Positions 1 to 27,711 are shown, numbered from the stretch's first letter. The stretch: 64,000 nucleotides of DNA from an uncultured Thermoplasmata archaeon (GCA_963715645.1 OY970259.1:2860-66859), one strand, 5' to 3'. Made by a program: numbers and translations. Notes: a model not told the origin generated them from the sequence alone.

Positions 1-157
1 GTCCCCCGGGTCTACCCGGGCTCTGGGCCCGCGTCAACGCCTTCCTCGACCTCCAAGCGCTCTCCGTGGCGAGCGTGGCGGGCGAGGAGTTCCGGAAGGT
101 TCCGCGGCCGCTGACCGGCCTCGCCGCCCGCCTCGAGCGGGAGCTGGAGGGCGACTG

Positions 158-2491: not shown

Positions 2492-2541
2492 ACCCGTGGT
2501 CGGGGTCGCTGCTGCCGGCGGGAGCGGCATGAGGTAGAAAC

Positions 2542-4331: not shown

Positions 4332-4379
4332 AGTGCCCGTTTCCGGCGACCCGACGCAGGTAGTCACGGAGAAAAGAAC

Positions 4380-6908
4380 TTGGACCAACCTTCAAGTCGC
4401 CTCGGGTGCGTGGGGGGAGAAGGGGGTCCAACCCATCACCGCGAACAGTCAAACGGTGGAGCCACAGGCGCAGCAGCTACTCCTCGACATCCAGCAGTTC
4501 GATACCTGAACGCAGATCGGGATTACGTGCTTGCATCGCTCTGGAGCGCGATAAAGAGAATCGAAGAGACATTTCCGCGCTTCGGACACTTTCTGATGGA
4601 ATTCATCCAGAACGCGGACGACGCGGGAGCATCCCGGATTCTTATTGAGATTCTTGCCGACCGCATTCTCATCCTAAACAATGGGACCGAGTTCGCCGCC
4701 AAAGATGTGGCAAGTCTATGCAAGGTCGGCCTCTCATCCAAGAGATCGGGGGACTACATTGGGTACCTCGGAGTAGGGTTCAAGTCCGTATTTCTGATCT
4801 CCGATAAGGTCGCCGTGACCTCGGGGGAGTACAGGCTTCAGCTTCGACAAATCACAGGCGGAGTCCTCCTGGGGCTCTAGCGTTCCTTGGCAAGTGATTC
4901 CCATATCGGCGGAGCGTATAGCAGACGTCAATGGTGACTGGCGATCTGGATTCTCAATCTCTCTTGCCCCAGCCTCCGAGCCGGTGGTTTCCAGAATCAG
5001 TCAAGAAGCCGGCCCCGAAGAGTTCCGCACCCGTACTTTGCTCTTCTTACGTCACGTGAATGAAATCGAGATCGTAAATCACACAACTTCCCCAGGGCGA
5101 CGTATCCTCTCGAAGCATCTCGCTGAGAAGGCAACAGTCCATGAAGTCTGGGAACTTTCAGACACACGCGACGGAAGCACTCTGGTAGACGCGCGATTTC
5201 TGTTGTTCAGGCGAACCGTCTGCGTGCCCGACGAGGTCCGAGCAGACGAAATGACGGTGAGGTTCGACCGCACGGACGCGGTATCCAGGGAGGTGGTTGT
5301 TGCCTTCCGCTTGGCTCAGACAGGCGAATTGTTGGCCGAACCCAAAGGCACTTTGCACCTCGCAGTTTTCAGTTTCCTTCCGATTCGAGATGTAGTGACC
5401 GGCCTCCAATTCACGATTCAGGGCGACTTCCTCACCGGACCCGGTCGCTCGAGCATCCAGTACGATGCGACTTGGAACCACTGGCTCGCCGATGAGATAC
5501 TCAGATTGATTCGCGAAGTCTGTGTGCCCACATTCTTGGGGAATCCGTTGTGGGCTGCTACGTTTGCACCGCTACTCGATGCAGGTCATTCAATGGACCC
5601 AATCTTCGGCTTGAGAATCGCGCAGCCGTTGCGAACGGCGCTCCAAAGGGACGCGTGGTATCTGACCGAGGGGGGAGACAAGATATCCTTGGATCGGGCC
5701 ATATTGATCGCATCCCCCTACCGGTCGCTACTCACTGACGGAGACCTTGCAGAGCTAACCCTGATAGGAAGACTACTCGATTCGGTTGTAAAGCTTCCGC
5801 CCGGCCTCTCGTACGCGGCAATAAGCATTCAGAATGATTCTAGGTACTGGGACCACTTTCGAAGCTCGCCCCATCTAAGGCCAGCGCGAAGAACCAAGCT
5901 TGGTTCGAGTCAAACTATCGGCGACAGCCCGGACCGCCCAACGGAATTGATGGGTTCGGGCCGGGTACCTGACTGACGACTTCCAGCTTGTGAATCACAG
6001 GAGTGTCTATCGACTTCCTACAGGGACCAGCATTCCCGGCGTCGCTGCGCGATGTTGTAAGGATTGCTCACCCTGTTCTCACGGGAAGCCCATGGGGAGA
6101 ATCAATCTCGGAACTCAATGACCAAGGTATTAGGGACCTCCTTTCCCTCAAACGACTTCCGGAGCTACAGGCAGAATGGCCGAGACTCGCCCCAGCCGCG
6201 CGAACGATGACGCTGCATGAACTCTTCAACATGTGGCGCGCAGGTCAAGTATATCCTCCAGCCCTAAGAGTTCCTGACTTTCCGGGAAGGGACGGTGAGT
6301 GGATCCCAGCCAACCGACTCCTACTCTCTATGGAGTATGGCCCCACTCACCATCTCGACGAGCTCGAGCAGAGGAAGCTGTTCGACCTGCATTTCACGAC
6401 AGGTCTGGCGTTCCTCGATCCGGTGCTCGTGAGCTCGTCGACAAATCAGGACCTCCCAGACTGGCGCGATTTCTTGACTGGACTGGGAGTAGATCGAGAA
6501 TTGAACGATCACCCCGAACGATTCTCTCAACGCATTGGGGTCATGTGCGCTCTTCGGCACGAACGAAATCGTGGGCGAACTCCGGCCGAGTTAGAGGAGA
6601 GCGCCAAACGAGGGTACGACATCGAATCCACGTCCGCCGACGGAACGATGCTGTATATCGAGGCAAAGGGTAGCAAGGACCAGAAACCAGATGTCCGGCT
6701 CACGGTGAACGAATTCAGGGCGCTCAAGATTAAAGGTGATTCATACCACGTTTACATCGCTCGCGAATGCATGGACCTCCCCCGAACTCTACATTCTTGG
6801 AGGGGAGAGATTGACCGACCCGACATTGGAGTATTCTGTGTCGATTGCCGGTACGCACAGTGGATCCAGCTCAAAGAGGGGCCTGTTACATTTCCGAATG
6901 CCGAGTGA
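4380..6908 (+). CDS. sacsin/HSP90-like GHKL ATPase fused to a DUF3883-type PD-(D/E)xK domain; interrupted (ORFs 4380-4880, 4894-5976, 6003-6908)
   Basis: N-terminal Bergerat-fold motifs FLMEFIQNADDAGA and GYLGVGFKSVF. The C-terminal motif is RGYDIES..LYIEAKGSK (D..ExK). The first frame switch lies between 4819 and 4836 (G5 run at 4823-4827; one G fewer gives ..TSGSTGFSFDKSQAESSWGSSVPWQVIPI). Further switches lie around 5870-6000. Confidence 0.75.
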
Positions 6909-7332
6909 ACATCGTACCTCATTACGATCGCTATGGCTCGCAATGGAGGAAAGGGAGTCCGAACGAGCGGACTTCCCGCCCGGTATGACCTCGTGGGTAG
7001 TTTGCCCCGCTAGCGGTGCTGGAAATTCGTTGAGTGACTTCACAGGACTTGGCATCCAACGCCTTCACACAAAGGACCGATTCTCTGGTGAGGGATATGA
7101 GGAGGGGGAGTGGAAAGTAGATCACGCAGATCCGAGGTTGCAAGGTGGCCCCACCGAACTTGAATACCTCGTACAGGCATGCAGAAGATGCAATCGTCAA
7201 GAGAGCGCCTCGGAAGAAAGAGAGTTCCGGGAGGAGTTTGAGACTGATGGCACTGTATCTCGAATGCTCGAGTCCATTGGCCTTTCACCGGAACGATTTA
7301 GCCTGCCTCCAGAGAAGCACCGGAACGGCTAA
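6898..7332 (+). CDS. small HNH endonuclease
   Basis: WKVDHADPRLQGGPTELEYLVQACRRCNRQE (D-H ... N ... CxxCN). ATG 6898 overlaps the upstream stop (TGA 6906-6908). ATG 6943 is an alternative start. Confidence 0.7.
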   Translation: MPSEHRTSLRSLWLAMEERESERADFPPGMTSWVVCPASGAGNSLSDFTGLGIQRLHTKDRFSGEGYEEGEWKVDHADPRLQGGPTELEYLVQACRRCNRQESASEEREFREEFETDGTVSRMLESIGLSPERFSLPPEKHRNG

Positions 7333-7432
7333 TCGGCGCGCCAATTGCTCAGGCGCTTTCCCTCACGATTTCGATAAGTGGCTGAGACAACACGTGTCCA
7401 AGCCTGAGACAACCTGAAATCGCCCCTGGGAG

Positions 7433-8083
7433 TTGCATCCGTCCGTGGTCGATCTGGCTGATTGGCTGATAGTAGGGTCCATCGTCGCTGGGTTTGCCGG
7501 CCTAATCATCACCTACCTCTTCAATGAACGATTGAATCGCCGTGCCTTCCGCCGAGAAAAACTCTACGAATTGAAACTTGAGACTTACCTCGACCTTCTC
7601 GGCTCGCTCAATATCACGCTTTCAGCGACCGGAGCATTGTGCGATCTAGCGGTTCGAGAGATTCTTAAACAACTTAGGAGAAAATCGGAGGAATCTAATT
7701 CCCCGAGCGTCCCGCCCGACCAATTGTTGCAAGCGCTCAGAAAACAACAATGGGAGGCCTTGGGATTCGTCGAACCCGCCACACCGCCGGTTGATTACAG
7801 TAAACCGCTCGTCCCATATTTCGCAGTAACGACTCTGGCCACAAGACAATCCAGCCGAGCCTATTTGCGATTGCTCCTCCTCGACTTTCCCGACCCCTTG
7901 CTACGGCCGATGATGGACTACTTCGAGAAAATGAAGCAAATCGGCGCATCTGGCGGGTTGCCTCTACCACCAATGTCGGACGAACAGGCCGAACGTGCCC
8001 AGCGCGACTTGGATGAGTTGGGATTAGAGTTTCGCAACCTCGCCGAATCGTGTCACAAGGATTTGCTTAAGACGATGGAGTAG
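7433..8083 (+). CDS. hypothetical membrane-anchored protein (one N-terminal TM helix, helical cytoplasmic part)
   Basis: Intact 216-aa ORF with a TTG start. TM helix is LADWLIVGSIVAGFAGLIITYLF. No family recognised. Confidence 0.55.
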   Translation: MHPSVVDLADWLIVGSIVAGFAGLIITYLFNERLNRRAFRREKLYELKLETYLDLLGSLNITLSATGALCDLAVREILKQLRRKSEESNSPSVPPDQLLQALRKQQWEALGFVEPATPPVDYSKPLVPYFAVTTLATRQSSRAYLRLLLLDFPDPLLRPMMDYFEKMKQIGASGGLPLPPMSDEQAERAQRDLDELGLEFRNLAESCHKDLLKTME

Positions 8084-8315
8084 CGGGCGCTCCTTCTGGA
8101 TATAGACATTCATGAAGAGTAAGAACGGGCTCGGCTTCGTGTCCCTGCCAAATTGACAAGAAGGTTTGGGTCTGCAAAGCCCTCAATGCCAAACGGTTGG
8201 GTAGGCTTCCACCGGAGCGGCCCGTCACGGAAGGTGCTGCTTACGAGCCCACGATGAGCTCCAGAGTCTCACGAACACACACGCCCAAGAGTCTCCTTCA
8301 TTGGGTCGCCTTTTC

Positions 8316-10354
8316 TTACGGGGACGGGGGAGCAGCCGGCCTGACGAAACCGGTAAGTTGGGTCCACATTGCCATTATGGATGCAGGGGGCGGGGAGTTC
8401 AAGGCGACCTCGCGCGCGACCGCGGGAGCCCTTAATCCGTTCCTTGACCTGACCTCGCGAAGGGCGGCTTCCAACACTAGCGGGGCGCACTCCTTCTCCA
8501 GAAGCTCCGAGAAATCGTCGTACGGGTAGAGGTGGGCGCTTGAGGCATACTCGGCCACCGCCTCCTTCGCCTTTTGGTCCGCTATGATCCTAAACGGAAT
8601 CCCCCACGCTGTCAGAACGCGCACGAACCCGTCGAAGCTCTGCTGACCACCAGCGTCAATGACCTCCACGCCACTGCGCGCCAAGTCAACGCCGTCGGAG
8701 AGTACTCGAAACCACTCTGGTAGGGCAGCGGCCTCCGATCCACCCTCGACAAGTAGGACCTTTTCGCTGAAGAGGGCGCGCGTCAACTGAGGAGTCCGCT
8801 CCAGGTCGCGGATCACTCGCCGAGAGTCACTTTCGATGAGTGTCCCTAAGCGAAAGACTTGGGTCTCTCCAGTAGCCGACGAGAAGCGCAGGAGGCTGAG
8901 CGCCTCCCGTGGAATCACAAAGGCGTCCGAGTGACTGACTATGAAGACTTGATTCCCCAAGGTAGTAGCGGCCTCGGAAATCAAGCTCAGAAGGTCGCGC
9001 TGTTTGACCGGGTGAAGATTTAGCGCGGGCTCGTCCAAGAGAATTACCGATTGTGTTCGGCCGAGGACGAGAAGGAAGGGAAGAAGGAGTTCAAGCAAAC
9101 CGGCAGCGACGGCCTCCGAGGAGAATTCGATCCACTCGTTACTCCAGCGCAGAGAAGCGACTTGGACCGGGTCGGGCATCGGCGATGATCGCGTGACGAC
9201 CTTGCCGTCCAAGACGAAAAGAGGTAAAGGCCCGCTCTCGGGCTGAGCAGGCCAGGACTCCACGACCACGTCGATGCCGTGCCCGGTGAATCTTCGGTAG
9301 ACCTCAACGAGTTCCTCAAAACGGGCACGCTCGGCCGGGATGACGCTGTTCTTCGAGCCGGTACGAGTACGTTCGGAACCGTGCTGCCGTCCACCGGACT
9401 CGCGGCGATTGGGATTGAGTAGATGGGCGGGATCTTCGTGCGCTCGGGCGTCGAGCGCGCGTCAGAGAGTCGAACCGTGGAGGACTGGAAAACCAACCCG
9501 GCAAGGTCCCGGAGCCCGAATCCCTCGGAGAGTGTATCCTGCGTCAGCAAGGAATGTCCTCAGGCGCAGAACGTCCAGGCCGAGCCGCCCGTCCGGTTTT
9601 CGTAGTTCTCTATCTCAAAGCCGAACGTGCTCAGGATGACGGGGTAGGGGCCCTTCGGCTGCATCTTAGTGAGGAACCAATCGAGGTTGAGCGATGAGGC
9701 GAACTCGTCGGAGTCCTTCTCATCGACGGGTTTCTGCTTGTCGCCAAGGGCGATGATGCCGGGTTGCCGGGCCTCCAACTCCTGAACGACCTCTTCCCCG
9801 AGGTTCACCAATCCCCATCCCATCGCGCGGGCAGAGGTGGTAGACAGTCCATTGGACGTCAGGAACAGAGGCGTCGGAAGCCCGAGCATCTCGACAAAGT
9901 AGTCGAGCGGATCCGACTGGTCCTCCCGCCCTCGCACACAGAACTGAAGCTTCCGAGAGAACAACTCGACAAAGGTTGGTCGTGCGCGGTTGAGAAGCTC
10001 GCGCGCAATCCGCTGGGCAACGTTAGTGTCCACATCGTTCTTGCCTCCGAACCTGAGATCTCCTTTAATCGAGGCAAGCAGGAGGTCGGCCAGAACCTCG
10101 ATCTCATCTCGGGCGAGAGAGATGTCTACTCTCACTGACGGAATCCGGGCCGTGTCGTAACGGTGGACGAACGGCTGAGCCGTCTTGATGCGTCCGGTGA
10201 ATACGTCCCCTACGAACTCAATGGCTCTAAGGAAATTCGTCTTGCCTGCTCCGTTCGGTCCGACGATGACCGTGCGCTGCGGGATTCCTTCGAGCAGAAT
10301 ACCAGGGTCCCCGAAGGTCAGGAAGTTTCGGGCCTCTACCCGCTCAATCTTCAT
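8316..10354 (-). pseudogene. OLD/PARIS-like ABC-type ATPase-TOPRIM nuclease, with an in-frame TGA and one frameshift as assembled
   Basis: ORF 9560-10354 has Walker A VIVGPNGAGKTNFLRAIEF. ORF 8316-9269 (open upstream to ~9365) has VILLDEPALNLHP, IVSHS, then TOPRIM-like KVLLVEGGSEAAALPEWF ... VIDAGGQQ. TGA 9560-9562 is in frame with the following GHSLLTQDTLSEGFGL (ORF 9044-9550). A frame change near 9355-9365 joins the rest. Confidence 0.75.
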
Positions 10355-10762
10355 TCCACGACCCTTCAGATGGGCCGAGGGAACTACTCGTCTAAGAAGG
10401 TTCGTTGAGCTGGCGCTCTGAAATGGTTCAGCGCAGAGGACGATCTTGAAAACGACTCGGACATGGACCCCCTCCCTCCGGACTTACCGCAATCGCCCAC
10501 TGGGACCTGTGGGGGGGCGTGACCGAATCGCTCAGTCCTCGGCCGCCCACCTATGCGAACGGGGCTCGGACCTAGTCCGGCTGAGAACCAGACCGAGCAC
10601 GGCGGCAGCGGCTCGGTCTCGAGTCGACCAACGCACTCTAGTAGAACGAGGCTCTTTGGTACGTTCATGACTATCAGACATAGGAGGGGTGGACAGCCCC
10701 TCGCTCGTCGAGCTCGCGTGCGCCGGGCGGAGGGACACGGTCCGTGTCGCACAGCACTCTAA

Positions 10763-12172
10763 GCCAGCCCGCTGATAGCCTCGCCTCTCCTAATCAGTGG
10801 AAAACCACGGACCTTACCCCGGTCAAGAAATCCGCGAGGGGTAGCCACCACCGGCACGGGAACTTATCTGCGGGGGGACGGAAGAGACCGGTGTCAAATC
10901 ACCACCCCTTCAAGCGTCGTTCGATTCATTTGGGAACAAGTCGCCAGTCGGAGGCGCAGAATCGGTTCCGTCATCGATCTCGGAGCAGGCAACGGCCGGT
11001 TCGCCACACAGGGGAGGTACCGCAGCTATCTGGGGCTCGAGATCGACCCGGATCAGGCATCTCGGCCAGCACTTCCGGCGAACGCTCGGGTGGTCAGAAA
11101 GTGCGTTCTGGAGTCCAGCGGGAAGTTTGACCTCGCCATTGGGAATCCGCCCTTCATTCGGAACCAAGACCTCGCAAAGACATGGACTGCGGCCGCTCGG
11201 AGCCTCATCCTACGTTCTCTCGGGCAGGACATCGGCCGGCTGAGCAATCTTTACCTCTACTTCCTCTGGCTCGCAATGCTGAGGACCAAGAGCGATGGCG
11301 TAATCGCGATGGTGCTCCCGTTCGAATGGACATTCAGGCCGACATCGCGCCGTCTGCGATCGTACATTCACCAGAAGGGGTGGGAGGTCACGGTCTATCG
11401 TTTCACGCAGCCCGACCGGTACTTCCCGCGAATCGCGGCGGTTCCCTCAGTTACGATCATCGACAAGGCCACGACCCAAGGCGGGATCAGTGTCTTCGAC
11501 GTTGGCCCTCGATTAGGAATCTTCCGGGCCCTCCCCCCAAACTCAACCATTGAGGGCATGTTCGAATACGAACGACATGCGGGGCGAGTCTTCGCTCGTC
11601 GCGGACTAAGCCCCGGATCCCAGCATGTCTTCACATTGACGGAGCGCGAACGCAGCGAAGCTGGCATCGCCCGTTCAAGCGTCCATCCTTGCGTGACCAG
11701 TCTGCGGGCCCTCCCGTATTCCGTCCGACAGTTGACCGGCGATCGGTTTAGGTCGTACTACGTGAACGCGGGAAAGAAGTGCTGGCTACTCCGGACAGAC
11801 GCCATGCCTCTCCCTCCTCCTGTCGCCGGATGGTTGAGAAGCGCGCCCGGCTGGGTGAAACGGAATTCGACCTGCCGGGATCGATACCCCTGGTATCGAT
11901 ACAAGGTTCCCACCCCAGCGGCGATCCTATACTCCTCGGCGTTCAAGGGCACTGTCCGCCCAAAGATGATGGTCAATGCTGTTCGCGCGGTGAATCTCGG
12001 CTCAGTTCATGGGGTCCACGGTCTAAAAAGCGCCGGCGAACTTCCGGTCCTGTACGAGCGCTTGCGCAGGCTGAACTACGCGCGAGGCACCCTCCCCGGT
12101 CCGGGTGGTCTAAGGAAGCTGGAAGTTCGCCAGATGAACGGCATTCTCAAACGGTTCTATATGCCTGGGTAG
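10763..12172 (+). CDS. gamma-class N6-adenine-type DNA methyltransferase (Eco57I/TaqI-like); no canonical in-frame start before motif I
   Basis: The frame is open from 10763. Motifs: TTPSSVVRFIWEQV, motif I VIDLGAGNGRF (10970-11002) and motif IV NPPF (11144-11155). The first ATG/GTG/TTG in frame is GTG 11090 (track ORF 11090-12172), which lies downstream of motif I. A GTG at 10744 in another frame suggests a 5' frameshift. Confidence 0.8.
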   Translation, partial: ASPLIASPLLISGKPRTLPRSRNPRGVATTGTGTYLRGDGRDRCQITTPSSVVRFIWEQVASRRRRIGSVIDLGAGNGRFATQGRYRSYLGLEIDPDQASRPALPANARVVRKCVLESSGKFDLAIGNPPFIRNQDLAKTWTAAARSLILRSLGQDIGRLSNLYLYFLWLAMLRTKSDGVIAMVLPFEWTFRPTSRRLRSYIHQKGWEVTVYRFTQPDRYFPRIAAVPSVTIIDKATTQGGISVFDVGPRLGIFRALPPNSTIEGMFEYERHAGRVFARRGLSPGSQHVFTLTERERSEAGIARSSVHPCVTSLRALPYSVRQLTGDRFRSYYVNAGKKCWLLRTDAMPLPPPVAGWLRSAPGWVKRNSTCRDRYPWYRYKVPTPAAILYSSAFKGTVRPKMMVNAVRAVNLGSVHGVHGLKSAGELPVLYERLRRLNYARGTLPGPGGLRKLEVRQMNGILKRFYMPG

Positions 12173-12190
12173 CACCAGGCCAGAGAGTCC

Positions 12191-14430
12191 ATGGTCGCTG
12201 AAACTGTCCCGCTAGACACGGGTATCGCCCGGTTCTCCAGCGATTCACAGCTGCTCTCGGAGCTAGGAGAGCGTCTCATCGCTGACCCGGTGATTGCTCT
12301 CGCAGAGCTCATCAAGAACGCGTACGACGCGGATGCAACTGAAGCGAACGTGTACTTGGAGAGCGGGCCTGATCCAGTCCTGATCGTACGCGACAATGGT
12401 CATGGCATGTCCAAGGACGATTTCCTGAACTACTGGATGATAGTGGGAACTCCCGCGAAGCTCGGCGCGGAGAAGTCACGACGGTTTCATCGGCCCCTTA
12501 CTGGCTCGAAGGGTGTCGGACGTTTCGCGGTACGCCTGCTTGGCAAGTCGCTCCACCTAGAGTCGGTCTCCTTTGACGCCTCCGTCAAGGAATGGCGGAG
12601 GCTCGTCGCGGACTTTGAATGGGGCAAGTTCGCATCGGGAAGCGACCTGGGAACGGTTTCTGTGCCCTACAAAATCTACCGCGAGGCGAACAAAGCGGAA
12701 GCAGGAACCCGACTCTCCATCGGGACTCTGCGGGACAAGTGGTCAGATTCGGACCTCGCTCTTGTCACCCAGGATGTGCTCGACATTGTAGAACCGCCGT
12801 TTCCCCTGACAAGTGGCCCGGCCAAGACCAGCCAAGGGGCCGCGGATCCCGGATTCTCCCTCTTTTTCTCGCCCCCGGGCCAAGGCGAACGCGCCACTCA
12901 GGCCGCCGACGAACTCGTTGAGAGATGGCAGGCGCGGATGCTGATCACCGTGGCGGGCACCGCTGCGCAGTACCAATGCTTCTACAAGGACCAGAAGGGT
13001 AAGCCCAAACAGTGGACCGTTTCACTCGACAAGAACCTCGTCGGTGACGTGACTGCCGAACTCCGGTACTTTCCGAGGCGGGCCGGCATGTTTAGCAACA
13101 TGACCAACATGGACGGTCGAGACGTCATTAGCTATCTTCGAAAACGCGGTGGCGTTCGCATCATCAATCGCGGCTTCCGGATTCGACCATACGGGGAGCC
13201 CGATGACGACTGGCTCGGACTCTCACGTTCCAAGGCTAGGAACGAGCGAAGATGGAACTCCCCCTACACGGAAGTACTCTATCCGAGGGCCAAGTTGCCC
13301 CGGGAGGAGTCGCTCGACCCGCTCCTGAAGCTGCCTGCGAATCACCAACTCTTGGGGACCGTGTGTGTCGAGAGTTTCCAATCTGACCAATCGAAGGGGG
13401 TCAACTCCGATTCGGATCGCCTCCAGCCGGCTATGGACCGTCAGGGGTTCGTGGACAATGCGGGGTTCAACCAGCTCTCTCGCCTCATACGGACCGCAAC
13501 GGAACTAATCGCGGTCGTCGACCGAGAGCAGGGAGTCAAACGCGACAAGGATCGGGAGGCCCGCGTTACCCGTGAGGTTCAGGTCAAGATCGACACCGCG
13601 ATTGAACGAGTTCAGAAGAGCCGAGAGATTGCACCGAAGGAGAAGCGCGCCATAGTCGAGTCCTACCGGGAGATTCAATCCGCGGTCGCGGTCTCTGCCC
13701 AGGCGCACGGTCAAACACTCCGCGCTGTCGAGGCGATGTCCCTCCTCGGCGTTCTTGCTGGATTCATGACCCACGAAACGACGGTCATGCAGAGGGCATC
13801 CGAAGAAATGATCAAAGCCCTTCGGGCCATTCCGGCCCGGAATCGACCCGTCGGCTATGATACATTGCTGTCGCGCGTTGAAGAAGCCAACCGCGAGTTC
13901 AAGAGTCACATCGAGTACGCCCGCTTGTTCCTTACGAACATTCACGAGCGCGAGGTCCGTCCGTACCCGGTTCGGCCTCAGGTAAAGCGGGTATAGATCA
14001 TTTCAAATCGTTCATGGACGCCCGTTCCATTCGAGGCGAGAATACCGTCTCTACTGACGAGCGTTCCCCCGCGATCGGGGTCGGGGTCTACTCGGGAATA
14101 TTGCTAAACCTCTTCACGAATGCCCTAAAAGCCGTCGTGAAGGTGGACAATCGAGAGAGGCTGATTCAGGTCTCGGCGGAATCTACGCCTCAGGGGCACA
14201 AACTTCGGGTGTCCGACACTGGTGTTGGGATTCCCCTTGAGCTGCAGGGCCTAATCTTTGAGCCGTTCATCACAACGACCGGGGACGAAGGACCTCTCGG
14301 GAGCGGGATGGGGCTTGGACTCCACATTGTCCGTCGGGTCCTCGATTCCATAGGTGGGCGAATAGAATTGGTGGATCCACCCGATGGATTCGTGACGTGT
14401 TTCGAGGTGACCTTCCAAAATGCCAAGTGA
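12191..14430 (+). CDS. MORC/HATPase_c_3-like GHKL ATPase fused to a histidine kinase core (HisKA + HATPase_c); split into ORFs 12191-13996 and 14014-14430
   Basis: N-terminal motifs: ALAELIKNAYDADA, VRDNGHGMS, GSKGVGRFA. A long helical linker follows. H-box LLGVLAGFMTHETTVMQ (His codon 13772-13774). N box LLNLFTNALKA, G1 VSDTGVGIP, G2 GSGMGLGLHIV. The two ORFs are separated only by TAG 13994-13996 plus a frame change. The second frame is open from at least 13921, so a 1-nt indel would fuse them (~745 aa). Confidence 0.8.
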
Positions 14431-15307
14431 GGGGGTTGACGCGCGGGTCCTCATCATAGAGGACACTGAGGAGACATACCAGAGACTCAGCACGCTTCTT
14501 TCCGCCAAGAGCGCTGCCCTTCGGTTCTCAACCGAGCGGCTGTCGATTGAACCAGGGAATGGTTCGGACCTTCCGGCTACAGAGGAGGTTGTGCGGAGCC
14601 GTCTACTTGACCCTAACCCGACTTCGTTGGTGCTCCTAGACCTCGACCTGAGCAAATTTCCCAAGCACGTTGCCCGAGAGTTCGTGCAGGGGGTCTGCTC
14701 CGATCGGAGGATCCCGATTTGTGTTTACAACTACCGACCTGACGTCCTTCAACGGCTCAAGGATCTGCGTCAGTGGCAAGAAGAGGCAATCTCAATCACG
14801 GATTGCGGCACGATTGAGGAACTGGCCGAGAGATTCCTTGACTGCATCGGTGGATTCATGGCACTTCGGGCCTCGCTCTCTCAGTCAGGGAGGGGAGACT
14901 TCCGACAGACAATTCGTCAGATTCTGCAATGCCCGAAGGACGCTAGGATACAGCTGGACCAGTACTTCTGGGGTCGATTCGAGCCCCTCCAGGTCGCGGA
15001 GCTTTCCCCGGAGGAACGCGTCCGAGTCTTCACAACTTCCTTGGGATACTGGGTCTACAACGTATTGCTCCGATTCCCAGGTGTCTTGCTCGGTGTAAAG
15101 CCGGCAGCTTCATACCTGGACATTGACGTGGATGCGTTCTGCACCAAACCGGAGATACAGAAACTCTTTGATGCTGCGCGCTATAAAGGGCCATTTTCCG
15201 GCGTGCGACCTTATTGGTGGGCCAGCTCGCTCGACCAGATACTCGCTGAAGGGATGGTAGAGAGTGACACATCCATGGTTTCCGGGGAACACCCACGCAG
15301 AACGTAG
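14420..15307 (+). CDS. receiver (REC)-like domain protein with an unassigned C-terminal domain
   Basis: RVLIIEDTEE (acidic pocket) and LVLLDLDLS (phospho-acceptor-type Asp, codons 14638-14646). About 170 aa of C-terminal sequence have no recognisable family. ATG 14420 overlaps the kinase stop (14428-14430) by 11 nt. Confidence 0.65.
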   Translation: MPSEGVDARVLIIEDTEETYQRLSTLLSAKSAALRFSTERLSIEPGNGSDLPATEEVVRSRLLDPNPTSLVLLDLDLSKFPKHVAREFVQGVCSDRRIPICVYNYRPDVLQRLKDLRQWQEEAISITDCGTIEELAERFLDCIGGFMALRASLSQSGRGDFRQTIRQILQCPKDARIQLDQYFWGRFEPLQVAELSPEERVRVFTTSLGYWVYNVLLRFPGVLLGVKPAASYLDIDVDAFCTKPEIQKLFDAARYKGPFSGVRPYWWASSLDQILAEGMVESDTSMVSGEHPRRT

Positions 15308-15496
15308 GGGATTTTCAGTTCCCCGGTGTCGGTGTCTTAGGGGGCATGACGGCGCGGGGTACTTCTTCATAATCCGGGAGGAGCCAGTCTGCGCCGAGCA
15401 CTCTGTCAGACCTAGCGGTTGGCTGCCCGTGGGAGCGGATCAATCTCGATCGAACAGGAAAAGATAGACGAGCTGAACCCGTGGCTCGCCCTGTAA

Positions 15497-16001
15497 TTGC
15501 GATTGGAGATGTCCGAGTATCACGCGCGGGCCGGCCCCTACTTGAACCCGATTCGTCGGGCGTACGAAGACTTTTGGCGGACGCTTACGGGCTTGACAGG
15601 AGGGAAGGCCGAGCCGATAATTCGCGAAAACCTCGATGTGAGAGTCCAACGCGATTCCGCAGGGGAAGAGTGCGTTTATGTCGTCTCTCGTCCGGCCTTC
15701 AGGCTCCGAGGTCTCTCGGCGCGTCGTAGAGATGTGCACCGATCCGACTATGACGTGTACATCGCAGTTGAACAATCAGTCCGCGCTCGCGAGGCACCGG
15801 TGGATGGACGGACATTCGATGCCGTCCGTCTGCGTGCGGGTAAGCTACATGGACTGTGAGGAAAGCCCCAACGAGCCCCACGGAGCCACCGGTTCCGATC
15901 CTGGGCGGGTCCACATCGGAATCCACTTCGATCTGAGCGACGAGGAGTCCGGCCCCTCGATTTCTACGATCATCCGATCTTTCACGCCCAATACGACCTG
16001 A
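15497..16001 (+). CDS. hypothetical protein, probably one frame change (ORFs 15497-15859 and 15678-16001)
   Basis: The likely start is ATG 15509 (MSEYHARAGPYLNPIRRAYEDFW). The second ORF continues with VSYMDCEESPNEPHGATGSDPGRVHIGIHFDL. No family recognised. Confidence 0.3.
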
Positions 16002-16871
16002 GGTGCATCGACCCGGCTTCGGTCGGTAGAACGTGCGTCCCGTCGCAGGACTCGGCCCGATGTGACTCCCCCAGAATCCCGACTGCGCCCATGGACTTCT
16101 CAGGAGTCGTGTTCGCGATTTTGCGGGATCACCTGCCGGACACGGTGGCGTCCGGATGGCCTCAAGACATGCGGGAGGCATTGATTGCACTACCTCACCT
16201 CCCGACTGGCCGCTTCGCCCCATTCGTCAACGGAACAAGCGGATTGTCGGCGCTTGGCGGGACCGGTCTGACGGCAAGAGACCCCCAACGTGACCCTCCC
16301 AAACGAGTCACTTAGGATTCGGGGCAATCCGCAATCCCGTTCGACCAGTCCAGGAGGTATCGAGACTCAGACCGAACTTCGACAAATCAATCCGGTGGCC
16401 CGAAGAGTATGAGAGATCCGGTGGGAAGCACAACTCCGCATTCCCGCCGGTGGATTAGTTTCCACGATTCCGACTGGACCCCAGCCGGTCTGTCAGGCGT
16501 GGAACGGTCCTCCGCCGCCGATCTCGGTCATCATTCGTCGAGGGATGAGGGCCCGCCGCCGCGAGCGCTGTCACGACGCGATTGGAAACCGGTTGAGAGC
16601 TGCAGGTTCGGAGAGCGAGCTCGGATCTTCGGTCGTGACCAAGATCAGGGGTTCAGTCTCACCCGGACTCGAAGTGTCGAAGAGCCATTGGGCCGGGGGA
16701 TCAATGGAGTGACGTTCACGGCGAACCAACCCACGTGGCCCCGGTTCAGGCGTGCCCTGCGGCGGGGTGCGGGGTCCATGTCTGATGGATCGCCGGGCAG
16801 GTGGCCGGATGGTGGTCTCCCTCTCGGAGTTATAGACGAACGTATCGTGGCGCTCCTCCTTCAGCGCTGAT

Positions 16872-17320
16872 GTGAACTATTTCGCATACGGGTCGAACAT
16901 GGACCTCTCGCGGCTCCGGGAAAGAGGAGTCCACCCTCGAGAGAGAAGGGCCGCGGTGCTCCGGGGTTATCGTCTCAGGCTTCGACAAGCGATCCGCTGC
17001 TAACCCCGGCGAAGGAAAGGCCAACATCATGGCGCGGACCGATGAGTCGGTGGAGGGCATCCTCTCGACGGTCACGGAAGAGGAGATGGGGAAGCTGGAC
17101 CGATGCGAAGGCGTCCCAGCCCACTATCTCAGGGCTCGCGTAGTGGCGAAGCTGAAGGATGGTACGGAGGTCGACGCGGTCACGTATCGTGGCGAATCCA
17201 TCGATGGTCTTCGATGGTTTGAAACCGACCAGGGAATATCTTTCGTATCTGCTCGCTGGGAGAGGCTTCCTTTCGAGAGATTACCTTCGGTGGCTGGAAG
17301 GAACCGAGACCTTCGACTGA
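16872..17320 (+). CDS. gamma-glutamylcyclotransferase-like (GGCT/AIG2 fold) protein, two frame changes
   Basis: GTG 16872 gives VNYFAYGSNMDLSRLRERGV..VLRGYRL. After a shift near 16975 it reads FDKRSAANPGEGKANIMARTDESVEGILSTVTEEEMGKLDRCEG..YLRARV (ORF 17029-17352). After a shift near 17210 it reads KPTREYLSYLLAGRGFLSRDYLRWLEGTETFD and stops at 17318-17320. Confidence 0.6.
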
Positions 17321-17495
17321 ACCGAAGCTTGGAGCCTCCACGCAAGCAGTAGCCGTTCCCGCCGGCGCCTCACCCCTGACCGCTGGTGCGGGTAGGGGGC
17401 CCTATCCCAACACAACGGCCGGGCTTGCTTCGGGGGTCGACTGCACATTCGTTGAATCGGCGGTTCTATAGAGCAGGGCGCCGTCGGATGACCGG

Positions 17496-17735
17496 ATGGC
17501 GAGCCTGAAGGATGAGGTTTCGGACGCCCTAAAGAAGCAGGGTTCACCCGCCGGGGCCCTTCCGTTGTGGGAGGAGATTCACGCGGGCTACGAGCGTGGC
17601 GGCTCAGACGCAGTCTGGAACCTCCTCGAGGGCAAGGTGAAGGCGATTCGGAGGTCCGCCAAGGCGGAGGCTTCGGAGATGAAGGCCGCGGCGGGATCGG
17701 TCAAAGCAAGGGCCCGTGCGAAGAGGAAGCGGTGA
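17496..17735 (+). CDS. small helical Lys/Glu-rich protein (79 aa)
   Basis: Intact ORF. Its TGA (17733-17735) overlaps the GTG 17732 start of the downstream ATPase (GTGA). Confidence 0.5.
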   Translation: MASLKDEVSDALKKQGSPAGALPLWEEIHAGYERGGSDAVWNLLEGKVKAIRRSAKAEASEMKAAAGSVKARARAKRKR

Positions 17736-19988
17736 AGGGCGAGGATGGAAAGGTCCACCTGAAAGCCCTTGACGTCGAGGGATTCAGGGGAGCCAACAAG
17801 AAGGTTCACCTCGACTTCAGCCCCCGAGCGACGGTGCTCTCAGCGTGGAATGGGAGGGGAAAGAGCACCCTGCTGGGCGCCGTAGAGTGGGGTCTCTTTG
17901 GAGAGCTTAAATTCCAACCCCCGGAAAACCGGACCCGTGACGAGCTTGTCAGCCTCTTCCATCCTGGAGGCCGCGCATCCGTCCAGTTGACCCTGTCCAG
18001 GGACAGCGAGGACATCCGGGTGAGTAGAACCCGGGTGGTCGGCAAAATGGGTTCCAGTCTTGAGGTTCGAGATGGTTCCGGCAAGACTCTCGAGGACGAC
18101 GAAGCGGCAGAGTTCATCTTCCGGCTCGACGGGGCTCGGGTTCGACGATTTCTATCGGGCCGCATTCCTCCATCAAGATAGTATCCGCGGACTCTTGACC
18201 GAGGAGCAAAAGGACCGAGACGAGGCCTTGGATCGGCTCCTCGGAGTCGAAACGATTCGGAATCTCTTGACATCGATTCCTCTAAGGCCCGTCTCCACCG
18301 CCCTTGACGAGATAGAGAACCAAGAAGGGAGGTTGATGGAACGGCTCGCCGGCGCCGGGGGTGTTGCCGAAGGGACTCGATCGCGTGCCCGCGAGGAGGC
18401 CCTCGGGGCAGGGTATGACGAAGAAGAGCTCACCATCAAGAAAGGGTTCGACGAATCTCAGGCCCTTCTCGCGGACTTGCGCCGTGTCTGCATGAAGTAT
18501 GACGCCGAGGCGCCTGGTGAGGCTACGGTTGAGAATCTGGAGGACCTCGAACGCGTAGCGCGGCGGATCAAGTCCGCAACCCGGGCGATTCGGTTGACGG
18601 TCGGAAAGGAATCCCCCCTGGACGTCGCAGTGGGCCGTCTCGGGATGTTGAAGAAGTGGAGAGTAGAGATTGAGACGGCCCAAATCGATCTTCAGGCTTC
18701 ACAAACTGCGGTGGAGGAGCACGGCAAGGAACACGGCAAGCCTGAGCAGTGGGCCGGGACGCGGTCCTCACTTCTCGAGGCGATCGAGCGAAGCGAGGGG
18801 GCGCTCCACGTCCTCGACATTCACGGAAAGGTGGTGGCCGACGCTATAGCCTACTTGGAGGCAGTTCCGTCCTCCCGCGAGTGTCCCGTCTGCGGCGACC
18901 CGAAGGAGGCCGCCAAGCTCGCTTCGCTTCTTCGGACGAAGATATCCAAGGGCCAGGCCACCGAGGTTCGACGCCTTCGCGAGGAGGTGGCGGAGGCCAA
19001 GCTAAAGATTCGAGGGCCTAGGCAGAGCTCGAGACACGACGGGGTCGGCTCGTGGCCGAATCCGAACGATGCGCCACGTCGCTCAAGGAGACGCTCGACA
19101 CGACGTGGAAGGACCTTGGCAGGAAGGGGGAAACCGGGGATCCAGTCACCACGATCAAGAAGGAGGAGGGGGCCCTCAATGGTAAGCTCCAAGGACTGCG
19201 AAACCTGAACCTCGAACGAGAAGGAGATCTCCAGAAGCTTGATGATGGCGCCGACCGCCTTCGAGCGTTGCAGCGCTTCGTCAAGGCGGACTCTGATTTC
19301 CAGCGAGTGCGCGAGAAGGCGGAGGGGGGAGATGATGGGGGAGCCAAGGCTTTCGACGAGGACAAGAGGCAGTTGGTTGCTCTGAGGACGGAACTTGAAT
19401 CAATAATCCAAGCGCTCAACGGCCTGTCCACCGGAAGGGCACAGGAGGCACTCGCGCGCTGCGGCGAGGACATTTCGCGGCTGTACGGATTCGCTCTGCA
19501 ATCACCCTTACTTCGACGGGCTGAAGATCGAAGTGAGCCAGAAGGCCGTGCAAGGAGTTCAGAGAAACACCTACCGGATCGTCGCCTATTCTTCGAAGGA
19601 CGGTCAGCGGACCGCGGCGAGCTCCCGACTCTCGACGGCACAGATGAATTGCGTGGCCCTAAGCGCGTATCTTTCTCTGGCTAAGGTCCTGACTCACAAT
19701 CTCGGGTTCATCTTGCTGGACGATCCAAGTCAGAACCTCGACGCTGAACACAAGAGCGCATTGGCTGGTGTCATCAAGGGGCTCTTCCCTTCGCTCCAAG
19801 TAGTCGTGGGAACCCATGACGCCGAGTTCGATGGATTCTTGCGTTCGAGTTTGGGCCGGGAAGAGGTTTCGTGGTACGACCTCAAATGGAACCCCGCGAC
19901 GGGACCTCGGTCATACCCAACAATGCCAATCATGGATGATGCTTCCCCCAGACTCGCTAAGGGTCCTGACAATGGTCCAGCAGCTTGA
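17732..19988 (+). CDS. Rad50/SbcC/SMC-like ATPase with coiled coil and central CxxC (zinc-hook-like); three frame changes
   Basis: The fragments alternate between two frames. 17732-18181 has Walker A WNGRGKSTLLGAVEWGLFG. 18060-19208 (meaningful ~18125-19020) has FDDFYRAAFLHQDS, coiled coil and ECPVCGD at 18879-18899. 19052-19684 is coiled coil. 19533-19988 has signature-like LSTAQMNCVALSAYLSLA, Walker B FILLDDPSQNLD and VVGTHD. Confidence 0.75.
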
Positions 19989-20437
19989 GGGGTCGTTCGG
20001 CGCTCAGCAATTCGGCCAAATCATGCAGACCCTCCTCGCAATTTCATTCCGAAGCGCCGGATTTGAGGTCGTCAAGAACGCAGTCGGGGTCCCTGACCTC
20101 CAGGCCTTCCATCCAGGCGAATCTGACGGGTACGCGATCGAGGCGAAGACCGGTAAGATGTCCGTCAGCCTGTCGAAGAGGGACCTCGATGGAGTCAGGT
20201 CGACCGGACGCATCCCGGTTGTCGCTGCCTTCTTCGTTTCCGATCCGAAGCCGCGTTGGTGGCTTGTCGACGCAAATGCAATGCGCGCGGCCACGTTACC
20301 GAAGGCACGAGATCGAGTCCAAACCCAGAGTAGACGTGGGCTTTGATCTTACCGACCAGTTTTCCCGAATTCTCGCTAGCAATATCCAGATCGCGATGGA
20401 GGGGCCGGGACCCCTGTCACGTTTACTCGGAGGCTAA
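19972..20437 (+). CDS. small PD-(D/E)xK nuclease-fold protein, one frame change near 20300-20312
   Basis: GVPDLQAFHPGESDGYAIEAKTGK = PD-x15-ExK. ATG 19972 (or 19936) overlaps the 3' end of the ATPase gene. The C-terminus continues in the frame of ORF 19985-20437 (EIESKPRVDVGFDLTDQFSRILASNIQ). Confidence 0.55.
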
Positions 20438-20706
20438 TCCGCAGGATTTCAGCTACGACCCCCGAGGCCTCTGCGGAGATTGCGCTGGTTGCGGAGTGGA
20501 ACGAACCCGCCGGACTTTGATCCGGCGGTCGATGCCGGGCCCGATCCCTGACTGTCTCGGGTGGCTTCGACTTTGGGTGGGGCCGTGACGAAAACCAGCC
20601 GTTAGGTCACACCCCCACGGCTTCAGGCGAGTCAGACCCGTAGGATCGAGACGGGGGACTTGGGTCACAGACCGGGGCGGGACGCATGGCTAGGGCGGGA
20701 GCTACG

Positions 20707-21252
20707 TCACGTCCGTACCGAGGGTGCCGACGAACTGATCGATGAAGTCGCTGTCCGCCCGAAGGCCTCTAACCCGGATGCGCGCTCCTCCCACTGGCGA
20801 AGGGTGGATTGCCAAGGGAAGGACGCCCCCCCTGAGCTCTCGAGTGTTTCCTTGGGGAGGGCGGCGGAACGAAGAACCTTCGAACTCGTCGTCCGGTCAA
20901 GATAGGAGTAGGACTGAGGAGGTCGGCGCAGACGGGTCGCCTTGACCAGGGGTACATGCCGGGGGAACTTGACAGCCTCCGAGACTTTGTAGACGGTGGC
21001 GGCTCTGCATCCACGCAGGTACTCGAGAAACTCCTGCTGTGAGATACAAAGCCGGCGACTAAACTGTCGCCATGCCAAGGTTGGGCTCGCGCGGCAGACC
21101 TCGTCCACGAGCATTACGCCGGTGATGGCAGAGGCGGGGGCGGTCTCGTAAATGAATGCCATCCGAACCCGCGAAGAGGGGGAGGCTCTTCGAAGCTCGG
21201 CGGTCTTCTCGCCTGCGTAGATCCTCGCAGCGTATCTGGGATGGATTGCCAT
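20707..21252 (-). CDS. ASCH (PUA-like) domain protein
   Basis: MAIHPRYAARIYAGEKTAELRR ... AFIYETAPASAITGVMLV. ATG 21252 lies 20 nt downstream of the stop of the PIN-GNAT gene. The 3' end of the ORF (beyond ~aa 135) is less convincing. Confidence 0.6.
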   Translation of the reverse strand: MAIHPRYAARIYAGEKTAELRRASPSSRVRMAFIYETAPASAITGVMLVDEVCRASPTLAWRQFSRRLCISQQEFLEYLRGCRAATVYKVSEAVKFPRHVPLVKATRLRRPPQSYSYLDRTTSSKVLRSAALPKETLESSGGASFPWQSTLRQWEERASGLEAFGRTATSSISSSAPSVRT

Positions 21253-21272
21253 GACGATGGCTCGCTCTCCCG

Positions 21273-22730
21273 CTACTTCCCGCATAACGCTCTGTAGTCC
21301 TCCTCCTTGAGTTCACGGATGCTGATGGGCGGAGTTAGGCCGACTGCAGCCAAATCCCCGCGGTAGTTGTTCGGAAGCCCGCCGGCTGCCCAGAATAGAA
21401 GTGCCAAGACGGGTCGGTGGCACATTTCGATCAGCCGGTCCAAGGGCATGACCGTGCGGTTTCCGACGAAGTCGATGACCTCGGTAGGCGTCTTGCAGAC
21501 TCGCGTTTCCTCGACGAGTCCAACTCGGGTCACCCTGCGCTCGTCCTCGGACCGATAGAAGAGAAGGATGTCGCCGGCTCTGACCTTGCCCGTCGCGGAG
21601 TTCGAGAGGTAGGCCTTGCGGATAGCGTTCCCCGCCGCGAATGTGAGAGGGACGGATCCGTCGAGCGTCTGCTGGTATCCCGGGGTCGGGTCAAATTCCG
21701 GGAAGAGCTGACGGTGATAAGGCGGTTTGATTGGGACGAGGAACTTCCGAACTGAGTTGTCCTCACGATATCGGGGGTAGTACTGACGAAAGAAGTTCAG
21801 GGGAGAGAGATCCTCACTGTCGTTGATCGGCGCGATGCGTTTGTGAAGCACTCGCTCCGAGTTGGGCTTTGGACCGATGTCCTTGAAACCGAACGGGCTC
21901 AGGAAATCGATAACCTCAGGGTGGTGCGGAAACACCGTCACGTAACACTCCTCGAAATCGTTCCTCCGACAGTAGGATAGAGCAAAGGAGAGAAGGAGCT
22001 CCCCCACGCCTTGGCGCGACAGTTGATCCGAGACTTTGAAGGTGGCGATCTTTAGCCGTCGATTTGCCGGGAGATGCAGGAGTGGCTCTTCGCTCTCCTC
22101 CTTGTAGAGCAGGATGCCAGCAAGCCCACCTTCCGGGAGGCGAACCCGGACGCATCGCCGCCCCTCTTGGCACGCCTTCTGAAACCAAGCCTCGAATCCC
22201 GGGTAGTCCGCCTTCAGCGAGCTGAAGATGGGGTCGTCTGATATCGAGGTCGTGTACCGGAACATCCCTGAGGTGCGCGGGGAGAGGTGGGGGTGCCCTC
22301 CCGAAATAGGCCTGAAAGTACCCGTAGGGCCGCATCGGTAGACAGAACCCTCTTCTCTTAGCCCGACGCGGTTTGACCGGTGGATGAGACCCTGATCTTC
22401 TGTGATGAGGAACGAAACCGCGTTCCGGAAGACCGCGTATGCCAATCGCGCGTCCACTTGGTCGTGAGCCGACGTGCTCCCGAATTGCTGGAGGAACTCG
22501 GATGTCGGAGCCGGAGGGGTGTCCAGAACCGGATACGAACGGACCTTGGATAGAATGACACTTCTGCGCTGGGGATCCCCGTCTCCGTCGAGTTCTGTCA
22601 ACGAGGCCGGGTGAATCAGAGCGGTGACTGCGTTCTCGTTGAGCAATTGGAGAAGGCGGCCCAGCGTTGGGGAGAGCACGTTGGGATCCTCCCTCCCGAT
22701 GAGCAAATTCGTGTCGAGCAGAATCCGCAT
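21273..22730 (-). CDS. PIN-like nuclease / GNAT acetyltransferase / ASCH-like three-domain fusion protein
   Basis: Intact 485-aa ORF. PIN-like: MRILLDTNLLIGRED and FLITEDQGLI. GNAT motif A: QLSRQGVGELLLSFAL. C-terminal PUA/ASCH-like: VRKFLVPIKPPYHRQLF and KVRAGDILLFYRS. Confidence 0.7.
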   Translation of the reverse strand: MRILLDTNLLIGREDPNVLSPTLGRLLQLLNENAVTALIHPASLTELDGDGDPQRRSVILSKVRSYPVLDTPPAPTSEFLQQFGSTSAHDQVDARLAYAVFRNAVSFLITEDQGLIHRSNRVGLREEGSVYRCGPTGTFRPISGGHPHLSPRTSGMFRYTTSISDDPIFSSLKADYPGFEAWFQKACQEGRRCVRVRLPEGGLAGILLYKEESEEPLLHLPANRRLKIATFKVSDQLSRQGVGELLLSFALSYCRRNDFEECYVTVFPHHPEVIDFLSPFGFKDIGPKPNSERVLHKRIAPINDSEDLSPLNFFRQYYPRYREDNSVRKFLVPIKPPYHRQLFPEFDPTPGYQQTLDGSVPLTFAAGNAIRKAYLSNSATGKVRAGDILLFYRSEDERRVTRVGLVEETRVCKTPTEVIDFVGNRTVMPLDRLIEMCHRPVLALLFWAAGGLPNNYRGDLAAVGLTPPISIRELKEEDYRALCGK

Positions 22731-22755
22731 CCGGGAGTTCCGGAGGGACCTTCCG

Positions 22756-22840
22756 CCTATTCAGGCATCCGACCGAGGAGCGGGGGCTTGCAGAGGAGCC
22801 CAACGGCGCGTACTCAGCGCCACGTTCATGCCTGAATAGG
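22756..22840. repeat. 13-bp perfect inverted repeat CCTATTCAGGCAT / ATGCCTGAATAGG with a 59-nt spacer
   Basis: The arms are at 22756-22768 and 22828-22840, read directly. They lie in the 135-nt gap between the recombinase stop (22866) and the PIN-GNAT start (22730). Confidence 0.9.
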
Positions 22841-22865
22841 TGCGGCCGACGCCGGGCTTTCGGTG

Positions 22866-26978: not shown

Positions 26979-27076
26979 GAGGCCCCGCTGGGAGACGATC
27001 CGTTGGACGCGTCGGAACTCGGACCAGGTCCGGTCCGAGAGCCAGAGGTGGCGCTGGGAGGTGGGAGGGGGAGGGA

Positions 27077-27635: not shown

Positions 27636-27711
27636 GCGCGAGAGGGGTCAGGGCGACCTGAACAAAGCTTCGCGCATCGCCGGACGGGCGCCGCCCGGGC
27701 CGGTCCCGGCC

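Follow-up and report, generated by a model that had tools for sequence, protein, structure and literature searches.

How does a block of DNA of deviant composition, filled with predicted antiviral genes, come to lie between two recombinase genes of an archaeon, and by what route is its content replaced? This question is raised by a window of 64,000 nucleotides from an uncultured Thermoplasmata archaeon (GCA_963715645.1 OY970259.1:2860-66859), in which a lower-GC island is bordered by two small serine recombinase genes, here called L (left) and R (right). Window positions refer to the whole 64-kb stretch and genome positions to the 2.18-Mb contig of the studied genome, G000; the other G-numbers designate the genomes compared, and the L-numbers (L050, L051, L057, L061 and L071) metagenome contigs. 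The island is probably the variable cargo bay, that is, a defence hotspot, of a 52.1-kb integrative element in this high-GC Thermoplasmata archaeon, with turnover through an insertion-tolerant junction and homologous exchange.

A low-GC block within a tRNA-integrated element

In 1-kb windows, GC content stays at 0.70-0.72 up to ~4.0 kb, falls to 0.54-0.62 between 4.5 and 22.5 kb and returns to 0.69-0.70 past 23 kb. The flanks have a GC content of 0.707 (left) and 0.690 (right) and the whole genome one of 0.676, whereas the island value (Table 1) is matched or undercut by only 0.65% of the genome's 18.5-kb windows. The best GC change-points are at 4352 and 22765, so that a composition step is present at both borders. 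By itself, such a step is not unique in this genome, which has ~45 lower-GC patches. After correction for GC, the tetranucleotide correlation between island and genome is 0.85, as compared with a median of 0.96, which places the island in the lowest 2%. Stop-to-stop open reading frames (ORFs) with a length of 100 aa or more have densities of 6.7 and 5.9 per kb in the two flanks, compared with 3.35 per kb in the island, where stop trinucleotides are twice as common as in the flanks. An earlier note on this DNA had described a sharp compositional change at both borders and a stack of spurious ORFs in the flanks that vanishes inside; both descriptions agree with these profiles.

Such a sharp change in an error-prone, metagenome-type assembly could be produced by a chimera, the low-GC block having been misjoined into the contig. 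This is extremely improbable, as both junctions are covered by independent contigs from other samples: L050 begins within the 3' end of the L recombinase gene and continues into the island, and L051 spans the methylase, the R recombinase and the rightmost cargo, the PDC-M11 pair.

The two bordering genes are convergent, both being transcribed towards the island. The L recombinase covers positions 2-140/145 of the Resolvase model (motif YVRVSSEEQ) and matches a DNA invertase in PHROG (2e-28), the TP901-1 catalytic domain (2e-9) being its only PDB sequence match. The R recombinase covers positions 1-144/145 (motif YARVSTKEQ) and matches Gin invertase (1e-24) and gamma-delta resolvase (1e-21) in PDB. 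As judged from these matches, R is a canonical resolvase/invertase-type enzyme and L is more divergent. They share 30% identity and are the only PF00239 matches in the 2.18-Mb genome; the earlier description of two small serine recombinases of differing sub-types, facing the island, is thus confirmed by full Resolvase domains. Exact-sequence look-ups of L and R returned no match.

The island is nested in a larger integrated element of 52,111 bp, which crosses the contig junction and reaches genome position 2,160,636. In the window, the element stops at the tRNA-Arg(CCG) gene located at 27561-27636 (-). The 14-bp core ACGGGCCCGCCGGG occurs exactly twice in 2.18 Mb, at genome 30420, in the tRNA, and at genome 2160636, beside the integrase gene. 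The reconstructed attP consists of this core flanked by an inverted repeat, ATGGGTTCTATAAGG and CCTTATAG...AGAACCCAT, with the predicted junction ...GGTATGGGTTCTATAAGGAAATGGTT-ACGGGCCCGCCGGG-GCCTTATAGGAGAATC... The integrase gene (~444 aa) has its ATG at genome 2160696, 47 nt inside attL. As a single sequence, the integrase had no match in Pfam or PHROGs; its homologues are annotated as site-specific integrase or XerD, and a profile of 28 homologues matches XerA in PDB (4a8e, E=9e-7; 5hxy, E=6e-6). R152, R271 and Y306 are invariant in the alignment and H298 is nearly so. No second copy of this XerA-like family lies inside the 52 kb, and a pattern scan of viral contigs for integrase relatives found none.

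Further evidence comes from the empty site. A distance of 286 nt separates tRNA-Arg of G004 from the orthologue of genome 2159897-2160446, and 5' of the tRNA, relatives carry the orthologues of window 40019 onward, with the same neighbours kept. The intergenic DNA of this site in G004 is too diverged for a base-level alignment to attL, so that attB is supported by gene order. These empty-site neighbours sit at opposite contig ends in G000, where an ORF with a third-position GC content (GC3) of 0.88 reads through the contig junction. It follows that the contig is circular and that the tRNA 3' end carries an insertion of 52,111 bp. Related elements that share the arm occupy tRNA-Met (G003, G062 and G064) or tRNA-Lys (G067). 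The nested architecture proposed in the earlier note, with foreign cargo in an integrated element, accordingly stands on the att repeats, the integrase, the empty site and the variable cargo described below. It needed correction on two points: the element extends across the contig junction, and its integration is attributed to a tyrosine integrase, not to the serine recombinases.

The other genes of the outer element encode RecT, two PrsW-like proteins, membrane or surface proteins, a small P-loop ATPase, a DUF3644 protein, an MmeI-like methylase fragment and an fn3 protein, together with a compositional tape-measure match; the element also has a second small patch of low GC, restriction-modification-like in content. 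No capsid, terminase or conjugation genes were recognised in domain and PHROG scans; lacking such hallmark genes, the element cannot be assigned to viruses or to plasmids. The earlier view that the flanks are of plasmid/provirus type and stop at tRNA-Arg hence holds for the tRNA-Arg end and not for the type. The left arm, which includes a PrsW-like fragment (2075-2491) and a 346-aa ORF (2542-3582), is 89-93% identical to G076 and L071. A diverged direct duplication of a ~2.9-kb module relates genome 2176709-2179568 to window 1-2909, at 73-84% identity; between the two modules lie ~8.5 kb, with a low-GC patch at 2179-2182 kb, that are missing from G076, in which a single copy of the module is joined directly to the L recombinase.

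It could be argued that there is no nesting, and that two integrated elements lie tail to tail, each terminating in a recombinase gene of its own, with the low-GC DNA as the sum of their distal ends or as trapped chromosome. This would fit the occurrence, in most genomes, of the R-module (the recombinase, two methylases and two small ORFs) without an L-type gene, and vice versa, as well as the diverged left-arm duplication inside G000 and the use of several tRNA genes in the neighbourhood by related elements. This arrangement is very unlikely, given the single att-core pair and the single integrase of the family within 52 kb, and the colinearity of both arms and both recombinases in G076, whose copy of the outer element is 89-95% identical and has the recombinases in the same convergent layout. 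Furthermore, at the empty site of relatives the tRNA directly adjoins the gene lying beyond attL, which leaves no chromosomal DNA to be trapped.

Cargo replacement at fixed borders

The island is not vertically conserved: its DNA found no match in 40 relatives, 24 of which belong to the same genus. Comparison with G076 shows that it is replaced as a block. The core genes of G076 are 68-77% identical to those of G000, and the outer element is far more similar between the species than the chromosome is. The homology between the two elements stops 12-16 nt past the L stop codon, and the bay of G076 contains 10.2 kb of unrelated cargo, encoding ThiF E1 and E2 proteins, a ClpP-like protease, an SDR protein and a TetR regulator. 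In L071, a further variant, the left breakpoint is the same and the cargo is unrelated to that of either G000 or G076. In G076 and L071, the L recombinase is 96% identical to that of G000 and the flanks are 89-96% identical. The right breakpoint falls within the last ~6 codons of the R recombinase gene (22870-22884).

Similar boundaries are found away from this element lineage. The closely related L-type genes of L057 and L061 are followed by unrelated downstream DNA, and in G022 the neighbours of an L-type gene are AbiGi and an MmeI-like methylase. Many genomes, some of them with several copies, have the R-module at 72-89% identity, and its methylase operon is 84-89% identical in G076, G003, G074 and G062. 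Around R-type copies in more than 10 genomes, homology always ends at the 3' end of the gene and the cargo differs, including an OLD homologue (G062) and a radical-SAM protein with HD-AAA (G019). A drop in downstream GC is frequent but not universal. The PDC-M11 pair follows R-type recombinases in G064 (63-77% aa identity) and in L051 (93% nt identity). The nested reading has to be adjusted on this point too, since the rightmost cargo travels with the R recombinase in other elements; because of this linkage, the right GC border is not a simple scar of recent insertion.

As a side observation, G011 and G008 share with G000, at 98-99% identity, the stretch 27077-27141 at the head of the methylase-recombinase operon, although their matched contigs are without the rest of the R-module.

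Sites at which the recombinases might act were sought at both borders, as the earlier note had suggested, and no shared site was found. A repeat search over 3400-23700 revealed no direct or inverted repeat common to both borders or between modules, the repeats present being short and at chance level. When the sequences that follow 14 R-type and 5 L-type genes were aligned, no conserved or dyad-symmetric site was seen, the sole downstream conservation being the ~12 nt past the L stop codon. No cognate res, inversion or att site was found at the borders or downstream, upstream sites inside neighbouring genes not having been examined. A degenerate copy of the tRNA core (7 exact nt) just downstream of the R recombinase was dismissed as a chance match; it is missing in G076.

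Recombinase-mediated capture or exchange of cassettes, each serine recombinase acting at or just past the 3' end of its own gene, would be another explanation for such borders. Its best support is that three elements with 93-96% identical L genes carry three unrelated cargos and diverge at the same place, 12-19 nt after the stop codon; in many genomes, the right breaks fall within the last R codons. In bacteria, small serine recombinases show a statistical association with defence systems, and it has been postulated that they act in mobilisation (PMC13552941). The process nevertheless appears unlikely in the light of the site searches, which yielded neither a conserved or dyad-symmetric site after the 14 R-type and 5 L-type genes nor a repeat common to the borders or between modules. 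The sites of known resolvases and invertases are situated upstream of the respective genes. In addition, the L/R pair is restricted to G000 and G076 among the 61 genomes of the genus, and thus to one element lineage, and ancestral junctions that are inherited and moved by homologous recombination also predict a shared boundary. A more ambitious version, in which the two recombinases form a natural cassette-exchange platform with cryptic 3'-end sites, defence blocks being captured and swapped at fixed nucleotides, is more doubtful still; if true, it would be the first mechanism for the recombinase-defence linkage, and in archaea.

The explanation preferred here is that of a cargo bay with an insertion-tolerant junction. 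The place where the two convergent recombinase genes end would tolerate insertions, hence the turnover of cargo, and the conserved flanks would permit whole-block exchange by homologous recombination between co-resident or incoming related elements. The serine recombinases would most likely work for the element itself, resolving multimers or inverting DNA for instance, and would not integrate it. The cargo genes, probably intact in the cell, would protect the host, and hence the element, from viruses and rival elements. The comparisons show the nesting, the borders and the turnover; as no recombinase sites were found at the borders, the mode of exchange is an inference.

Several observations weigh against this explanation. 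No mechanism of cargo exchange has been observed, and the recurrence of breakpoints at the same nucleotides also fits a site-specific process. The PDC-M11 pair is stably linked to the R recombinase in several elements, and the cargo beside these recombinases is not always of defence type, sugar epimerase and glycosyltransferase genes being present in G013 and G074. The internal duplication and the ~8.5 kb that G076 lacks indicate that the history of the element is composite. Finally, the intactness of the cargo genes, discussed below, was judged by comparing two error-prone assemblies.

Cargo genes and the state of their reading frames

By domain content, the bay contains at least five recognisable putative defence modules: a TmtA-like protein, an OLD-family nuclease, a methylase with a GHKL partner, a Lamassu-like module and the PDC-M11 pair (Table 1). 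Pfam and PADLOC matches thus agree with the conflict-type cargo described in the earlier note.

Table 1. Features of the element and of its predicted cargo (window positions)
Feature	Position	Strand	Remarks
Left conserved arm of outer element	1..3582	+	high GC (0.71)
L-type small serine recombinase, 233 aa	3630..4331	+	Pfam Resolvase 3e-27, C-terminal HTH_23
Probable cargo bay (defence island), lower GC	4332..22865	.	18,534 bp; GC 0.590
Left breakpoint	4332..4347	.	~12 nt (AGTGCCCGTTTC) after L stop kept in G000, G076, L071 and L050; then divergence
Tiamat TmtA-like protein	4380..6908	+	sacsin/GHKL head, NOV_C (DUF3883) tail; Pfam SACS and NOV_C
HNH endonuclease gene (predicted)	6736..7332	+	Pfam HNH 2.7e-6
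216-aa ORF	7433..8083	+	sub-threshold Pfam match only; no PADLOC match
OLD-family ATPase-TOPRIM nuclease (Old/GajA/AriA-like), split here	8316..10354	-	Pfam AAA_21/AAA_15 and OLD-like_TOPRIM
Eco57I-type / type II N6-adenine DNA methyltransferase (predicted)	10763..12172	+	Pfam Eco57I; PADLOC MTase_II 6e-17
Double GHKL protein	12191..14430	+	HATPase_c_3 ... HATPase_c
295-aa ORF, overlapping end of GHKL gene	14420..15307	+	no Pfam or PADLOC match
GGACT/AIG2-like gene	16930..17352	+	two reading frames
Lamassu-like module	17496..20346	+	79-aa ORF, LmuB-type SMC ATPase, 176-aa ORF
PDC-M11 candidate defence pair	20707..22730	-	PDC-M11A and stand-alone ASCH protein
R-type small serine recombinase, 197 aa	22866..23459	-	Pfam Resolvase 9e-46
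Operon upstream of R recombinase	23456..27116	-	two paralogous N6_N4 DNA methylases (Pfam N6_N4_Mtase), 89-aa ORF, 193-aa ORF
attR	27535..27636	-	element arm 27535-27560, then 14-bp core ACGGGCCCGCCGGG 27561-27574 = tRNA-Arg(CCG) 3' end

The TmtA-like gene matches PADLOC TmtA (2e-64) with partial model coverage, its 835-aa read-through aligning only to ~300 positions at the start and ~80 at the end of the model (TmtA models have 1300-1780 aa). The OLD-family nuclease matches Old (3e-25) and GajA (1e-23) in PADLOC; no helicase domain, and thus no GajB, was found in any scanned island ORF, and the gene is not assigned to a Gabija system. The LmuB-type SMC ATPase (17739-19988; Pfam AAA_23 and SMC_N) matches PADLOC LmuB (3e-41) over model positions 2-593/611; Lamassu combines LmuB with an LmuA effector, and the 79-aa and 176-aa ORFs beside the LmuB-type gene have no match in Pfam or PADLOC. 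PDC-M11A is an intact PIN-GNAT-ASCH protein (21273-22730) with a full-length PADLOC match (2.6e-110), and the stand-alone ASCH protein of the pair lies at 20707-21285. No transposase or integrase remnants were found at 15.25-17.5 kb, and none were recognised elsewhere in the island.

GC content ranges from 0.55 to 0.62 between cargo modules, and this variation suggests that the cargo is of mosaic origin. For two cargo genes, the closest homologues are archaeal (unnamed metagenome proteins, Thermoplasmata, haloarchaea and Methanoperedens), with 35-52% identity to homologues in named species. A pattern scan of genome contigs for relatives of the GHKL gene found none.

At least nine frame breaks occur in the 18.5-kb island: the TmtA-like gene is spread over three frames, OLD over two and LmuB over four, and the GHKL and GGACT genes are split. 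Taken at face value, these breaks would describe a graveyard of decaying pseudogenes, with real frameshifts and a real in-frame stop, in an island that is no longer functional; in fact, L050 also has broken gene calls, and an insertion sequence within its TmtA-like gene. Such decay is highly improbable, as backbone genes are broken at a similar rate (~5/33 ABC domains and 2/3 AMP-binding genes are split), and the genome, a lone circular contig whose size is normal for the genus, nonetheless receives a completeness score of 54%. In methylase 1, which is intact (458 aa) in contig L051, G000 has 5 private indels versus 3 private substitutions, unlike four relatives with 0-1 indels versus 17-119 substitutions. 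L050, an independent metagenome contig, is 98% identical across window 4287-17554 and differs from G000 by 67 indels, mostly of 1 nt, the breaks being private to each assembly. It heals the G000 break at 4828 in the TmtA-like gene, and its extra G at 9577 puts the in-frame TGA of OLD (9560) out of frame. The GHKL gene is a single 746-aa ORF in L050 and in all homologues, a 1-nt difference at 13993 splitting the G000 copy. Gene decay specific to the island was therefore dropped after the split backbone genes, the excess of private indels and the breaks healed in L050 had been considered. Most likely, and by strong inference from these comparisons, the broken cargo genes reflect indel errors of the assembly.

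Three further observations concern assembly and gene integrity. Indels of 1-2 nt split ordinary genes genome-wide, for example at genome 1386293-1386723, 1469998-1471081 and 543235-544399; with so many assembly indels, any claim of a pseudogene, an in-frame stop or a split gene here requires read support. In methylase 2 (24839-26272), ~0.8 kb of comparable sites contain 25 indels and 52 substitutions private to G000, many more than the neighbouring genes have, and G074 is also highly diverged there; this excess may reflect consensus trouble between tandem paralogues or a genuinely decaying copy. The insertion sequence of L050, a contig from a sister population (L050:709-2136, ~window 4994-4998; ENA ERZ25039587), is 1.43 kb long and encodes a DDE_Tnp_1 transposase; bases 4994-4998 are present on both of its sides, suggesting a target-site duplication.

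Other variable regions and known systems

Variable DNA is not confined to the element. On the 5' side of tRNA-Arg, ~11.4 kb of the window (27640-39070) are also strain-specific; they encode GT4 glycosyltransferases (27712-28896 and 29080-30630) and include a patch of lower GC between 36 and 39.6 kb. In G024, no more than ~130 nt separate the tRNA from the orthologue of window 40019, and this short spacing implies that tRNA-Arg has variable DNA on both sides. Inside the element, the integrase-proximal arm contains a lower-GC patch (genome 2163000-2169500; GC 0.60) that encodes a DUF3644 protein and includes a truncated HSDR_N/N6_Mtase (MmeI-like) gene; this patch is possibly a second cargo slot. 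Directly beyond tRNA-Met (~2159893-2159970), a ~26-kb low-GC block (0.58) extends over genome 2133625-2159897; as G003, G062 and G064 carry R-module elements at that tRNA-Met site, the block is probably another integrated element or island. XerA-like integrase paralogues at genome 1715344-1716609 and 897774-899022 each edge another lower-GC region (1715.5-1787.5 kb and 883.5-902.5 kb, respectively), and their position at these edges suggests that members of the same element family may lie behind other islands of the genome.

Several known systems resemble this locus. Prophages of the P2 type and satellites of the P4 type contain defence hotspots (Rousset et al., 2022, PMC9122126), and others have been described in integrated mobile elements generally and in the core genome (PMC10250203; PMC10121019). 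As in the P2/P4 hotspots, a fixed slot of lower GC between conserved genes carries differing anti-virus systems in near-identical elements. Unlike them, the host is an archaeon, no P2/P4 or other viral hallmark genes were recognised, two heterologous small serine recombinase genes, convergent in orientation, delimit the slot, and the bay, large at 10-18 kb, accommodates several systems together. Because related elements carry unrelated cargo at the same borders, the locus exemplifies, in a soil archaeon, the defence hotspots that have been found in mobile elements of bacteria.

A second parallel is provided by the recombinases. Small serine recombinases mark bacterial defence systems (RADS; Andersen et al., 2026, PLoS Biol, PMC13552941), in a study that is confined to bacteria, makes no mention of archaea and leaves the mechanism open. 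Similarly to RADS, resolvase/invertase-type recombinase genes lie directly beside varied defence systems. In contrast to RADS, the linkage occurs here within a delimited element that is integrated at a tRNA gene and encodes a tyrosine integrase of its own, and with base-level evidence of cargo replacement at the ends of the recombinase genes.

Archaeal elements that integrate into tRNA genes by non-splitting tyrosine integrases (pNOB8-type, or type II) have been reviewed (PMC8371274), and an SNJ2-type has been described (PMC5861418). The element shares with pNOB8-type elements a direct repeat of the tRNA 3' end, an intact integrase gene adjoining one att site, presence or absence among relatives and several tRNA targets per family. 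It differs from them in that its integrase is missed by Pfam and PHROGs and is recognised only through a homologue profile, and in that a methylase-serine recombinase operon lies at the attR end. As in integrons and staphylococcal cassette chromosome (SCC) arrays, variable gene blocks gather at one fixed junction beside a recombinase gene. Unlike in integrons and SCC, no attC-like or integration-site-sequence-like (ISS-like) repeats were found between modules or at the borders, the enzymes are small serine recombinases, and the junction lies at the 3' end of the recombinase gene and not at an upstream attI.

The locus is an archaeal variant that unites a defence hotspot of a mobile genetic element, the linkage of serine recombinases with defence, and a tRNA-integrating element. 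Hotspots and recombinase-defence linkage have been described in bacteria, and the locus shows both in an archaeon. The comparison that it affords is unusually clean, with three unrelated cargos, one base-level breakpoint and elements moving between species. The 216-aa, 295-aa and 176-aa ORFs, together with several ORFs of G076, are candidate new archaeal defence genes, and the L- and R-type recombinase genes can be used as bait for cargo bays in Thermoplasmata metagenomes.

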